This document shows, piece after piece, positions 33,601 to 38,578 of a stretch of 39,548 nt of DNA. A program made the position numbers and the translations under genes. The stretch comes from a virus. Lineage: Duplodnaviria > Heunggongvirae > Uroviricota > Caudoviricetes. Numbering within the stretch: position 1 is the first letter of the stretch; every line of letters begins with the position of its first letter. The notes beneath the pieces are model-generated. The model made no database searches. It was not told where the DNA came from and saw nothing but the letters and a program-made list of their open reading frames with translations. The stretch lies in the IMG/VR virus record IMGVR_UViG_2519899835_000008; one strand, given 5' to 3'.

Positions 33601-34131
33601 TTATTTATTCAGTCCGGCGTCCTGTTCAAAAGGCTCGACATAAAAACTTTCAGCGCCTTTATTCACCTTAATACCGGCAATGCCTTTCACTGCATCCGGC
33701 TCCGCCAGGACCGCTTCCTTGTTCACTTCCTCTTTCGTGCGGATGAATCGCTCAAGCCCCATACGGCGCAGCATTTCAATCACACCTTCCACATCACGGC
33801 TGACGCTGCATGATGGATTTCCCAGCCGCCATGACACTGTTCCGGTGGTCAGATTGGCTGTTTTGGTTTTGCCGCCGTTCGTCAGCTCATCGCGGTTGGT
33901 TTTGCACCAGTCCTGAATCCCCTTAAAAAGCACTTTGATTTCTTTTTTAAGGTTTTCAATCTGCGGCGTATAACGGGCGGTGATTTCTGCCACTTCATCA
34001 TTCATCGCCGTTTCCAGCCGCAGCGCCTCTCGCTGAATATCGCCCAGGGTACGGATATCGCGGCTGACTTCTTCGCGGGTCTGCGGTGCGGCCTCGGCTA
34101 CAGCCTTTAATTTTGTAACGCGTTTTGCCAT
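33601..34131 (-). CDS. gam: Host-nuclease inhibitor Gam (Mu Gam, Ku-like DNA end-binding protein)
   Basis: 176-aa ORF with motifs LRLETAMND..AEIT, WCKTNRDELTNGGKTKTANLTTGTVSWR, GLERFIRTKEEVNKEA, EPFEQDAG closely paralleling Mu Gam. Confidence 0.85.
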   Translation of the reverse strand: MAKRVTKLKAVAEAAPQTREEVSRDIRTLGDIQREALRLETAMNDEVAEITARYTPQIENLKKEIKVLFKGIQDWCKTNRDELTNGGKTKTANLTTGTVSWRLGNPSCSVSRDVEGVIEMLRRMGLERFIRTKEEVNKEAVLAEPDAVKGIAGIKVNKGAESFYVEPFEQDAGLNK

Positions 34132-34142
34132 TTTGTTTTTCC

Positions 34143-34436
34143 TTATTGCAATGTATCTGGTGCGTTCTGCAAGGAGCGGCGCTCAATGCTGCTTTTCACC
34201 CCCAGAGCCTGCATGGAACCCTGAAGTTCATCTGTCAGAAACTGAATAATTGTGGGGCTGTGATATTTAAGAATTTGCGCATAAACATCACATGGGCCTG
34301 TCGGTCTGTTCTCCGTATCACGTTCGATTTTTACAGTGGCAGTAACCCCCTCCGTGATTTCCTGACTATCATTACCGGCTGGCTTTACTTCATGCATTAC
34401 GTGGTTAAATTCAAAAATAACGCGTACTTTGCTCAT
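34143..34436 (-). CDS. Hypothetical small protein, paralogue 1 (MSKVRVIFEF...)
   Basis: Start taken at internal Met of ORF 34143..34463; N-terminus parallels the adjacent upstream gene. Confidence 0.45.
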   Translation of the reverse strand: MSKVRVIFEFNHVMHEVKPAGNDSQEITEGVTATVKIERDTENRPTGPCDVYAQILKYHSPTIIQFLTDELQGSMQALGVKSSIERRSLQNAPDTLQ

Positions 34437-34713
34437 GGAATTCCCCCTGCTGATTAAATTCATTACCGTTAATAACCCCGGAAGCCATGCCCCTGTCTTT
34501 CATGAATGCACTGGCTTTCATTGCCACAAGCTCTGCGAAGTTTCTGCTTTCCGCGAGCATAACCACCCCAAAAATCATGGCGGGTCCATCACCTTTCTGC
34601 TTTATCCCGGTTGAACGTATGTCCAGACTTACCCCCATGCGCACTGTTCCATCAGCGTTTTTATGGATAACGTGCTCCTTATATTCGAAAATAATGTGTA
34701 CGACTTTACTCAT
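34411..34713 (-). CDS. Hypothetical small protein, paralogue 2 (MSKVVHIIFEY...)
   Basis: 100-aa ORF; N-terminal 12 residues parallel the next gene; ATGA overlap with upstream gene. Confidence 0.5.
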   Translation of the reverse strand: MSKVVHIIFEYKEHVIHKNADGTVRMGVSLDIRSTGIKQKGDGPAMIFGVVMLAESRNFAELVAMKASAFMKDRGMASGVINGNEFNQQGEFHEQSTRYF

Positions 34714-34991
34714 CCTCTGGTCCTCGTTCTGTTTGGATAACTGACCCGGCGTCTGACCTCACGGCAGAACCGAATCATGGCATTAAAGGCTTCTTCCTCC
34801 GTCACCGCTTCCGGTATCCCCGGAACCAGTAACTGCTCCTGTTCATCACGTCCATGACGCGCCATAACCTCAATCACATGCCGTACCGTGGCAGGCTTTC
34901 CGGCAACTATCGGCAATGCACCTTCCGGCAGGACGTAACCAAACTCAATAAGACCGCTCGACCACGCCCACGCAATCAGATTTCGTTTCAT
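34710..34991 (-). CDS. Hypothetical protein (93 aa)
   Basis: ORF in early operon overlap chain. Confidence 0.45.
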   Translation of the reverse strand: MKRNLIAWAWSSGLIEFGYVLPEGALPIVAGKPATVRHVIEVMARHGRDEQEQLLVPGIPEAVTEEEAFNAMIRFCREVRRRVSYPNRTRTRG

Positions 34992-34992
34992 C

Positions 34993-35247
34993 TCACACCT
35001 CCCAGTAAACCGTGCAGCCGCTGATGCGGGTGGCCTTCACACGGCGGCGCAGGCCGTTGGTCTGTATGGTGATTTCAATTTCACCGGTTCCCTGCACGTT
35101 GCCTACCGGCGGCGTGGTTTTCAGTGCAAAACGTTGCGGATAGCGCTTACTGCGTTCCAGTACCGCACCGGCAAGTTCGGTCAGACGGCGCGCGCTGTTC
35201 AGGGAGTCGAATAAATTCATTTTGTTACCGCAGGATTGCATATTCAT
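34993..35247 (-). CDS. Hypothetical protein (84 aa)
   Basis: ORF in early operon downstream of the transposition ATPase. Confidence 0.4.
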   Translation of the reverse strand: MNMQSCGNKMNLFDSLNSARRLTELAGAVLERSKRYPQRFALKTTPPVGNVQGTGEIEITIQTNGLRRRVKATRISGCTVYWEV

Positions 35248-35259
35248 ATAACACCTCGT

Positions 35260-35487
35260 TTAGCTGATTCGTTTTGCACCGATAAAACGACAAATATTGC
35301 TGTAAGCTTCTTTCGCACCTTCACGATCAAGTCCTGCCGATATTGCCATTCTGGTGCGATCATTAAATTCAAAAAGTAAATCGCCACATTCTTCACTGTC
35401 AGACACGGAGACTGCTTTGACGTTATCGAAATTCACCAGGTGAAAGCGTCCGTAAATATCAGGAATATTAAATGCAATCATAATCAC
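35260..35487 (-). CDS. Hypothetical protein (75 aa; Mu kil position)
   Basis: ORF immediately downstream of, and overlapping, the B-like ATPase gene. Confidence 0.4.
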   Translation of the reverse strand: MIMIAFNIPDIYGRFHLVNFDNVKAVSVSDSEECGDLLFEFNDRTRMAISAGLDREGAKEAYSNICRFIGAKRIS

Positions 35488-36416
35488 ACCTGTGAGAGTA
35501 ATTCAGGGTTGGTATAAACCTCTTTAAAGGCCGCATTAATATGTTTTTCTGTCAGCGCCGCGCCTTCACCACTGGCGGTGATCCATGCCTGGTTAAGCGT
35601 ATGTGTCAGAACACGTAATGCTCCCGGTTTTTCAGCGATAGCCTGCATGACAGCCAGCTCGGCCTCACCACTGATACCCCACGCCCTGGCAATAGCCAGC
35701 ACATCCGCCTTTTTGGCCTTGCGAAGTTGTTTTGTACGGGCAAGACGGCTGAACAGGCGCGATAAATCATCAACGGCGCGGCGCCCCCCCTTAAACAGTC
35801 CGCGCGGGTTACCAATAAGCACCATCCCGATCCCCGTGGCGTCCTGGATTGCACGCAGTTGTTCCAGACCGTCAATACCAAGATGATCCGCCTCATCAAC
35901 AATCACCAGTCCACGCGTTCCCATCAGGCGACGGCGGATGGCGCGGGATAATGCCCCTTTGTTCGCGCGGGTGTAATCAATTCCCAGCTCCTCGGCCAGC
36001 TCCAGCAGACACTCCGTGACGCTGGAATGCGCGGGAGACAGGGTTATCATCCAGGTGTTCGGTTGCTCCTGACAGTAATTACGGGCCGTGGCCGTTTTAC
36101 CCACACCCGGTACGCCCACAATGACGTTAATACAGCCCATCAGGCGAACCGCCTGAAACAGCGCGCGCAGCTCCTGGACTGTCTGCGTTTCCACAAACTG
36201 CGGCGGTTCCGGCAGTGCGCTTTGTTTATTCCAGTTCTCATACCAGGAACGCAGGGAAGCAGCCACAGCGACGTTATCGCCTTTATATTTCCCCTTGCGG
36301 AAAGCCGATAATGTACCGTCGGAAATTCCCGCCTCTCTGGCGATGGCATACTGCGTCAGTACGCCGCCATCAATAAGTTCATCAATGGTCTTGATTACAT
36401 CGTTAATATCGGTCAT
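35484..36416 (-). CDS. Transposition target-DNA activator, AAA+ ATPase (MuB-like)
   Basis: 310-aa ORF with Walker A GVPGVGKT, Walker B-like LVIVDEADH and N-terminal helix-turn-helix; directly downstream of the transposase. Confidence 0.85.
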   Translation of the reverse strand: MTDINDVIKTIDELIDGGVLTQYAIAREAGISDGTLSAFRKGKYKGDNVAVAASLRSWYENWNKQSALPEPPQFVETQTVQELRALFQAVRLMGCINVIVGVPGVGKTATARNYCQEQPNTWMITLSPAHSSVTECLLELAEELGIDYTRANKGALSRAIRRRLMGTRGLVIVDEADHLGIDGLEQLRAIQDATGIGMVLIGNPRGLFKGGRRAVDDLSRLFSRLARTKQLRKAKKADVLAIARAWGISGEAELAVMQAIAEKPGALRVLTHTLNQAWITASGEGAALTEKHINAAFKEVYTNPELLSQV

Positions 36417-36487: not shown

Positions 36488-38578
36488 TCAGGCCAGTGGA
36501 TCACTTTCTTTTAATTTTGCTTCGAGCAGTTGCAATCCCCGCTGGAAATTACGCTCGTATTCTTCATCAGGTTCATCGTCAGCGACCGGTTGCTGAACGG
36601 TCACCGTATTACCCACAGGGCGGTATATGTTTTCCAGCCATGGCTCCTGCGGCTTGTGCTCCAGCACGTTGACAACCTCATCCTCGGCATCACGGATTTT
36701 TTCCTCTGCGCGTTTACGCATACCTTTAAGGCGCTGTTGCTGTTTGTAGTATTCCGCGCTGACCGGGAAGGCTTCGCGTTTATTGCCGTCCCATACCGCC
36801 TCGCAAATCACGCTGCCATCCGGGCGACGAACGGTAATTCGTTCGGCATCATGAATGTCATAGCTGATAAGCACCTTGCGGCCATGCTCATCACGCAGCT
36901 CGGGCGCGTAGTAAATATTGTTCAGCCAGCGTATTTCACAGCGTCTTACAGGGCGCTCCACCATCGGCCGGAACATGTCCCGCAATTCCACATCGGACAG
37001 CCATTCAATTTCCGTATCCTCTTCTGCCAGGCGTTTTTTTCTGAACTCCGCCGGGCTGTAATGCTTGCCGTTCGGCTTCACCGGTAATTCATCGTGCGGC
37101 CGGTTGTTGTACCACTCAACACCGTCACGAATGGCATCAATCAGTTCAGACCAGGACGGTAAATCACGCATCGCTGACTGCTGCCGGGCGTTCAGCCGTT
37201 TGCCCTGTTGCAGGGCAGTAAATGCCGAGCGTAAATCGCGGTTGGTTTTACGTAACGTCTCGCGATCTGCACCTTTCCCGAAATAGGTGCGGTATCTGCG
37301 GGCTATGCGCATCGGTAATGTGCGGTTAAGCCGTTCGATAATGCCCCGTCCCTGCGGGTTACCGGCAATTCCGGTCGGGTGATTAATCCCCAGTCGCGGC
37401 AGTATCCCCACAATCTCTTTATCCAGGATGTCGGCCGTTTCCCCGGAGCCGTTATCCGAGTAATACAGAAACGGTTTGCCGTGATGGCGAATACCGTGCT
37501 GTATGGCGCCGGCTACGGCGAAAACATTTTCAGCCAGGTCAAGGCTCCAGCCCACCACAAAGCGCGTGCCACCGTCGATAACAAAGGTCACTTCCGGTGC
37601 AAATGGCCGCCCGTGAACCGGGTGCCTGCATTTCAGCTTCATGCCGTGACCGTCACCAATCCAGACATAATTAACCGGCATTTTTGACCAGTCGCGGCGC
37701 GTGAATCCCTCAAGCTGGCGGTATTCACTGCCGGTCACCCGGCCTTTTTGTTTCACCACTTCCGGCAATTTTTTCATTGCGCGGCGAATAGTGTCATAAG
37801 AGGGCATGATATCGAGCATATAAGGCTCATCAGCGTGCCGGTGCTGCCATTCGGCGACAAAATCCTCGTAAGCCTCGGTCATTGGTCGGCCGTTTGACTG
37901 GCGATACTGCGCCAGAAATTCGGGCAGCCAGTTAATATCTTCGGCTTTTATTTCCTGGCGTTTACCCGGTGCCAGTAAAAGCAGGCGTTCAGCGGCGTTC
38001 TGTGCCTTGTTAAAGGCCGCAATCCAGCGTTTCAGCGTGATTTCACTCAACGCGCGGCGGTTTCCCTTTTTGGCGTTCGCTGTCTCAACCATTGCCACAA
38101 TGCGCTCGTCCAGTTGTGAGCGTGACAGACGGTCAACAATAAACCGGATAGCTTTAGCGCAGCTGAAACCGGGTTGTTGCGCGAATTTCAGCACCTCGCT
38201 GACAATCGCGATTCGTGCATCAGCCACCTGGCGCTGGTTTTCAGTCAGGGCATTGAGGCGTTCGACCATCAGTTGTGGTGAACCGCGATATGCCTCCACC
38301 GCATCAACCACGTCAGGTGAGCGTCTGGCCTTTGTCACCACCGGAGCCGGTGATTCGTCGGCTTTTTGCGTCATCAGTTGCAGGGCGTAGCGTTCACGCA
38401 ATGCCTGCTGCGTCACTTCAGGTAAACAGTCGATGCTGTATTCAGTTGCTTTAGAGCCTGAGCGACGACGGGAACAACAGCTTTTCCCTTGTGCGTAACG
38501 TTGTAATGCCTGGCGAATACCTTTTGTTGTAGCAGGCATTCCGGGCGCGCCAATCAGTTCTTTTGCAATGACATACAT
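36488..38578 (-). CDS. DDE transposase (MuA-like)
   Basis: 696-aa ORF following ner; DDE core region WIGDGHGMK...FVIDGGTRFVVGWSL resembling the Mu transposase catalytic domain. Confidence 0.85.
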   Translation of the reverse strand: MYVIAKELIGAPGMPATTKGIRQALQRYAQGKSCCSRRRSGSKATEYSIDCLPEVTQQALRERYALQLMTQKADESPAPVVTKARRSPDVVDAVEAYRGSPQLMVERLNALTENQRQVADARIAIVSEVLKFAQQPGFSCAKAIRFIVDRLSRSQLDERIVAMVETANAKKGNRRALSEITLKRWIAAFNKAQNAAERLLLLAPGKRQEIKAEDINWLPEFLAQYRQSNGRPMTEAYEDFVAEWQHRHADEPYMLDIMPSYDTIRRAMKKLPEVVKQKGRVTGSEYRQLEGFTRRDWSKMPVNYVWIGDGHGMKLKCRHPVHGRPFAPEVTFVIDGGTRFVVGWSLDLAENVFAVAGAIQHGIRHHGKPFLYYSDNGSGETADILDKEIVGILPRLGINHPTGIAGNPQGRGIIERLNRTLPMRIARRYRTYFGKGADRETLRKTNRDLRSAFTALQQGKRLNARQQSAMRDLPSWSELIDAIRDGVEWYNNRPHDELPVKPNGKHYSPAEFRKKRLAEEDTEIEWLSDVELRDMFRPMVERPVRRCEIRWLNNIYYAPELRDEHGRKVLISYDIHDAERITVRRPDGSVICEAVWDGNKREAFPVSAEYYKQQQRLKGMRKRAEEKIRDAEDEVVNVLEHKPQEPWLENIYRPVGNTVTVQQPVADDEPDEEYERNFQRGLQLLEAKLKESDPLA

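Follow-up and report, generated by a model that had tools for sequence, protein, structure and literature searches.

Tandem arrays of paralogous small accessory or anti-defence genes are a general feature of phage early regions. Among the small early proteins of Mu-type phages, a phenotype has been described for Gnarl2 (orf63, corresponding to Mu E6/Mup07; NP_050611.1), an 87-aa protein encoded at positions 4784..5047 of Mu (Silas et al., Nat Commun 2025, PMC12373910). Expression of Gnarl2 in wild E. coli shifts the O-antigen bands downward, and its presence raises T5 infection 10^5- to 10^6-fold in ECOR1 and ECOR22 (PMC12373910). Here, we describe two adjacent small genes in the early region of a Mu-like prophage, which the original prediction had read as tandem paralogues next to gam, with near-identical N termini that then diverge, produced by a local duplication.

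The window, i.e., the whole stretch of 39,548 nucleotides that was analyzed, corresponds to a nearly complete Mu-like prophage. Its early operon lies on the minus strand and is ordered as A, B, a 75-aa gene, a kil-like gene, a 93-aa gene, the two genes under study, hereafter w100 and w97, and gam (Table 1), with homologues of Mu gp11 and GemA beyond gam. The 571-nt segment harboring both w100 and w97 (34143-34713), when used as a query, was 100% identical to the chromosome of E. coli FORC_069. The two genes are adjacent, on the same strand and in the same operon, and overlap by 26 nt; upstream, the ATG of w100 overlaps the stop codon of the 93-aa gene (ATGA), and downstream, 11 nt separate the end of w97 from the start of gam. 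The first end of the window consists of a fragment of a host fimbrial usher gene with the PapC N-terminal domain (1-576, plus strand; E 2e-50), and the prophage mom gene (683-1420, minus strand; PF25680) comes next. The usher gene was apparently truncated by insertion of the Mu-like prophage. In the tail-fibre region, a 684-aa protein (3043-5097, minus strand) carries a SASA/SGNH-type carbohydrate esterase domain and DUF6645, which suggests a receptor-binding protein that acts on acetylated surface polysaccharide, unlike the classical Mu S/U fibres.

Table 1. Coordinates of the early-operon genes and of sequence elements within the w100-w97 pair
Feature	Position	Strand	Remarks
MuA-type transposase	36488-38578	minus	
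MuB-type ATPase	35484-36416	minus	
75-aa gene	35300-35480	minus	PHROG 3375
Kil-like gene	34993-35247	minus	
93-aa gene	34710-34991	minus	PHROG 1518; adjoins w100 upstream
w100, upstream paralogue, 100 aa	34411-34713	minus	PHROG 4107
w100 N-terminal conserved segment (MSKVVHIIFEYKEHVIHK)	34660-34713	minus	predicted strand beta-1
w100 codon 91	34441-34443	minus	GAA in window, TAA in most relatives
w97, downstream paralogue, 97 aa	34143-34436	minus	PHROG 2230
w97 Shine-Dalgarno AGGGGG	34443-34448	minus	6 nt upstream of ATG, within w100 3' end
w97 N-terminal conserved segment (MSKVRVIFEFNHVMHEV)	34386-34436	minus	predicted beta-1; top-conserved family block (KVxVIFxFE)
w97 body, swapped allelic cassette	34160-34400	minus	identity drop versus other E. 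coli Mu-like prophages
gam (Mu Gam family)	33601-34131	minus	PF07352, E 1.6e-41; directly downstream of w97

The product of w100 starts with MSKVVHIIFEYKEHVIH... and its conserved N-terminal segment is MSKVVHIIFEYKEHVIHK. For w97, the mechanically listed ORF spans 34143-34463; nevertheless, the ATG at 34436 (MSKVRVIFEFNHVMHEV..., 97 aa) was taken as the real start, since it is preceded by the AGGGGG Shine-Dalgarno sequence and the same start is used in RefSeq, where both w100 and w97 are annotated with starts identical to ours. The w100 protein has 100 aa in the window and 90 aa in most relatives, and the loss of the stop at codon 91 (Table 1) accounts for the 10 additional residues and for the overlap with w97. 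One relative (P0001) shares this 100-aa allele with the overlap of the w97 start, and the codon-91 substitution sits just 3' of the G-run of the w97 Shine-Dalgarno sequence.

The conservation of the pair, its RefSeq annotation, the matches to PHROG families and the dN/dS values together indicate that w100 and w97 are both genuine genes. Of 5426 complete E. coli genomes, 226 (~4%) carry both genes as a pair, O157:H7 and O111 strains among them. The w100 protein matched PHROG 4107 over its full length (E 1e-58), and residues 3 to 97 of w97 matched positions 1 to 88 of the 89 in the PHROG 2230 profile (E 4e-37); w100 gave no match to the PHROG 2230 profile at E values up to 10. Across 32 loci, dN/dS was 0.30 for w100 and 0.34 for w97 versus 0.08 for kil, 0.09 for gam and 0.12 for the 93-aa gene, values which point to purifying but relaxed selection on both members of the pair. 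Sequence searches of Pfam, NCBIfam and the PDB with w100 and w97 gave no match, nor was any match obtained at the level of fold, and no literature was found on either protein by accession or PHROG identifier.

Next, the similarity of the N termini was evaluated. In the window proteins, these share 10 identities over 16 aligned positions, with two one-residue gaps, and the first 54 nt of the genes share 39 of 48 positions with two in-frame 3-nt gaps. Because BLASTP of w100 against w97 yielded no alignment, it was replaced by Smith-Waterman comparisons calibrated with shuffled sequences and by profile comparisons. The Smith-Waterman score of w100 against w97 was 54, versus 23.9±4.1 for shuffles, with none of 5000 reaching it (z ~7.3), and the N-terminal match is therefore well beyond chance. 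A chance or convergent resemblance between unrelated small proteins, sharing a hydrophobic beta-strand and a common MSK start, would fit the frequency of the translation-favoured MSK N terminus as well as the BLASTP result; nevertheless, we consider it very improbable in view of the shuffle test, of a DNA match whose gaps are in frame and of profile E values of ~1e-5 to 1e-6. Moreover, the match tightens when family consensuses replace the window proteins, as seen with MSKVVRIIFEY for w100 and MSKIVRVIFEF for the E. coli w97-type protein P0089, or MSK(I)VRVIFEF on the w97 side.

Overall identity between w100 and w97 is ~20%, and profile comparisons were used to follow the similarity further along the proteins. 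Alignment of the two families with hhalign gave E 4.9e-5 over 79 columns, and E 5.4e-5 over 81 columns after distant w97 relatives were added; against a w97 family of 78 to 80 sequences, the w100 family matched with probabilities of 85-89% and E 6e-6 to 2.7e-6 over 63 to 76 colinear columns. This last comparison places a GP motif and a C-terminal glycine of the two families at matching positions. Throughout these w100-w97 comparisons the hhalign probabilities were moderate (67-89%), and much of the score came from the first ~18 residues. Searching 1.84 billion representative sequences with the w97-family profile retrieved four distant true relatives and no w100-type protein. Four further hits (P0045, P0047, P0048 and P0052) were rejected as spurious; these are long, repetitive, apparently eukaryotic proteins (830-1030 aa), whose E values of 1e-12 to 1e-5 with the w97 profile arose from numerous short repeated stretches.

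The concentration of the pairwise score within residues 1 to 18 raises an alternative, in which only the first ~50 nt were copied between otherwise unrelated genes, e.g., through illegitimate recombination or gene conversion at a module boundary, so that the proteins would have just a leader strand in common. Such a chimera would agree with the separation of w100 and w97 into two PHROG families, and with the use of the conserved 5' segment of w97 as a recombination boundary for cassette exchange (see below). Nevertheless, when the first 17 to 18 residues were removed, the hhalign alignment was still colinear, to residue ~80 (P 0.002), with a score of 20.3 versus 10.1±2.1 and a maximum of 14.9 among 60 column-permuted controls (z ~4.7). 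In addition, both proteins have the GP motif and the C-terminal glycine at corresponding positions, and their lengths and predicted secondary structures agree. A partial homology of this kind is thus quite unlikely, and a recent copying of the segment is opposed by third-codon positions, which already differ. Outside the pair itself, the w100 body matched the Salmonella-type protein P0050 with a score of 43 versus 22.8±4.1 for shuffles (p 0.0003). We conclude, with moderate support from the sequence comparisons, that w100 and w97 are homologous and colinear over ~80 residues, with weak similarity beyond the N terminus; the pairwise alignment proposed as a check of the pair thus extends well past the N termini, and the similarity is not one of a few residues matching by chance.

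In the alignment of 78 family sequences, the top-conserved block is the first strand, KVQVIFTFE, followed by the pattern GP..YA.ILK...P.II.FL. Given that conservation in the family peaks at beta-1 and that synonymous positions within the shared N-terminal segment already differ between w100 and w97, the N-terminal identity is explained by a structural constraint on beta-1 (KVxVIFEF) and not by a recent duplication or gene conversion. Therefore, the near-identity of the N termini followed by divergence, as originally described, is real as a match, while the recent duplication that it might suggest is at odds with the ~20% overall identity.

Structure prediction, also proposed as a check, was in line with a common origin. 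The AF2 model of w97 (pLDDT 82.5) contains a beta-hairpin formed by residues 4-21 and 24-39, followed by helices at 48-58 and 60-77. The model of w100 has strands at residues 2-18 and 24-40 and a helix at 58-73, at low confidence (pLDDT 57.7), and a fold search with it was dropped because this value was too low. The order of predicted elements is the same in both models, a long beta-hairpin and then helices, suggesting one fold for w100 and w97.

To place the pair among its relatives, the ORFs were classified at 96 loci. Within the E. coli lineage, w97 lies directly downstream of the w100-type gene at every locus that has one. In contrast to this two-gene state, a single w97-like gene (97-98 aa, MSNKAQVIFTFE...) was found in distant Mu-like prophages from Salmonella assemblies, Citrobacter braakii and several IMG/VR contigs (L004-L008 and L091-L096), where it sits between a homologue of the 93-aa gene and either gam or a DUF3164 gene. 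In several of these loci (L004, L008 and L091-L096), a 212-aa DUF3164 protein follows the w97-like gene in the place of Gam, and L006 keeps Gam; the DUF3164 gene may be a functional replacement of gam in the same slot. As the outgroups have one copy and E. coli-lineage prophages have two, the polarity speaks for a duplication with w100 as the extra copy. Taken together, the shuffle-calibrated Smith-Waterman match, the colinear hhalign alignments, the predicted topology and the single-copy outgroups bear out the description of w100 and w97 as paralogous small genes near gam.

As for the duplication itself, no junction or DNA repeat beyond the coding similarity was found; the similarity stops after the first ~54 nt, and the upstream leaders and 3' ends of w100 and w97 are unrelated. 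The divergence of the sequences indicates that the duplication is old and the copies strongly diverged, and a missing junction is expected from an event of such age. Hence, a duplication is supported by the adjacent paralogues and the single-copy outgroups, and the second copy may have arisen in place or by import. In the second case, recombination with another Mu-like phage, whose resident allele at this slot was w100, would have introduced the gene and left a tandem pair of xenologues. Several observations could be read this way: the region is strongly mosaic, with the w97 body, the 75-aa gene and the 93-aa gene swapping or coming and going among near-identical prophages; the w100 body is closer to Salmonella-type members than its neighbour w97 is; and one locus has w97 alone behind the leader type that precedes w100 elsewhere. 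Nevertheless, a w100-type gene as the sole copy was found in none of 41 viral contigs and 232 E. coli records and in none of the protein searches, and every relative of w100 is an E. coli protein accompanied by w97. We therefore regard an import of w100 as unlikely, though less so than a chimera, and retain duplication of a single slot gene as the preferred reading.

The exceptional locus mentioned above is L053 (IMGVR_UViG_2654587996_000001). Its w97 (positions 2402-2794) is 99% identical to the window and directly follows a diverged form of the leader; the locus has neither the 93-aa gene nor w100. Its single copy is either ancestral-like or the outcome of an old deletion. A recent deletion through the repeated 5' ends was rejected, since the leader itself has diverged and a fresh deletion from a window-type arrangement does not account for it.

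The two copies also differ in how they vary among prophages. Alleles of w100 are fairly uniform, with 87-93% aa identity, and those of w97 fall into two very different classes with ~61% aa identity. Compared with L013 and L030, the w97 body showed 43-86% nucleotide identity per 30-nt window, mostly 43-73%, versus mostly 90-100% in the genes immediately flanking w97, and dS in the w97 body was 0.75-0.9 versus 0.03-0.25 in gam. As the identity drop and the high dS are confined to the body (~34160-34400), it is a cassette that is swapped between prophages by recombination; one breakpoint lies in the conserved 5' segment and the other at the start of gam. A correspondence between w97 allele and O-serotype was considered and found unsupported, since O157 and O111 strains share one allele class. 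The 75-aa gene forms a second mosaic patch, with 56-90% identity to L013 inside the gene and a dN/dS of 0.22, next to a kil-like gene that is 100% identical to L013. The 93-aa gene belongs to a family labelled 'host nuclease inhibitor' in PHROGs and has no Pfam match; it is kept beside the w97 family even in the Salmonella and Citrobacter prophages, and is lost in several E. coli loci (L014, L015), where ~75 nt of its 3' end remain.

To relate the pair to Mu, the Mup07 slot was analyzed. By tblastn, the Mu variants PhiR68_1 and Mu_3F6 were found to carry in this slot, which lies between Mup06 and Mup08, an 89-aa gene (MAKVIFEFTW...GPHDLLANIVLTMAPEIIKK...). The PhiR68_1 product matched w97 with a Smith-Waterman z of 12.8, and the w97 family by hhalign with a probability of 97.4% and E 1e-11, which by sequence makes it a clear member of the w97 family. 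In turn, Mup07 (87 aa, MAKVIIEIK...) matched the PhiR68_1 allele with a Smith-Waterman z of 4.2 (p 0.002), and the Mu gp7 family matched the PhiR68_1 type by hhalign with a probability of 65% and E 5.9e-5 over 65 columns; without the N terminus, the score of this link was 18.4 versus 9.3±1.7 for permuted controls. Mup07 also matched PHROG 2230 over its full length (E 0.009). Direct profile comparisons of the Mu gp7 family were not significant with either the w97 family (E 0.07-0.23) or the w100 family (E 0.21); those with narrow alignments failed, and the link emerged only through the PhiR68_1 allele, i.e., one intermediate type represented by two sequences. Since the direct comparisons were not significant, the link is probable and not established, and Mup07/Gnarl2 is probably a remote homologue of the w97/w100 family. 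By the w100-w97 comparisons, PHROG 2230 and PHROG 4107 form one superfamily, to which PHROG 10252 (Mu gp7) probably also belongs.

Overall, we consider it probable that w100 and w97 are an old, diverged pair of paralogues that fills the Mup07/E6 slot, with a putative host-directed role. In this scenario, duplication of the single slot gene in the E. coli lineage would have given rise to two proteins of roughly 10 kDa, in each of which C-terminal helices are predicted to pack against a long beta-hairpin at the N terminus, in a family that would occupy the Mup07/E6 slot of Mu-type phages. After the duplication, the copies diverged in charge, w100 being basic (pI 9.2 for the 90-aa form) and w97 acidic (pI 5.5), and in their evolutionary mode, one remaining uniform and the other being swapped. 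By analogy with Gnarl2, the likeliest mode of action is that w97 and w100 would each work alone and non-enzymatically, and would bind a protein of the host soon after induction or infection. The target could possibly lie in LPS or O-antigen biosynthesis, and two copies might cover different targets or target variants. This function of w97 and w100 is a weak inference.

A bolder reading would see the pair as a 'Gnarl-like' two-member module, in which w100 and w97 would bind different host proteins, or variants, of a cell-envelope or O-antigen pathway or form a heterodimer through their beta-1 strands. The tail-fibre carbohydrate-esterase domain of this prophage would fit a life style built around O-antigen, and if the reading were true, the cell surface could be altered in many E. 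coli serotypes by a Mu-like prophage that encodes no enzyme for it. We hold this to be a long shot. A diverged tandem duplicate in a mosaic accessory region of a phage is in itself common and unsurprising. What is new here is the link between PHROG 2230 and PHROG 4107 and, probably, the one to Mu E6/Gnarl2, which are modestly useful; they join two PHROG families, and probably a third, into one superfamily of small early proteins that belong to Mu-like phages of enterobacteria, and tentatively tie this family to its only member with a phenotype, the O-antigen-altering Mu E6/Gnarl2. If the Gnarl2 link holds, w100 and w97 are cheap candidates for tracing enzyme-free seroconversion and the diversification of its specificity.

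Compared with anti-defence arrays, w100 and w97 differ in that their selection is relaxed purifying (dN/dS ~0.3), not demonstrably positive. As in tandem accessory arrays, they are adjacent, co-oriented and translationally coupled, evolve faster than their core neighbours and undergo cassette-like exchange. PHROGs keeps 2230 and 4107 as separate families without function, whereas they are joined here. Gnarl2 resembles both proteins in its small size (~90 aa), in the lack of enzyme-like features and in its early-operon position between kil and gam; its N terminus, MAKVIIEI, resembles MSKVRVIFEF, and a helical motif (hydrophobic-A-x-x-VL...xII...E...K..G) is colinear among them. The arrangements differ in that Mu has one copy, with Mup08 and Mup09 between the slot and gam, whereas the prophage of the window has two, and the pair abuts gam.
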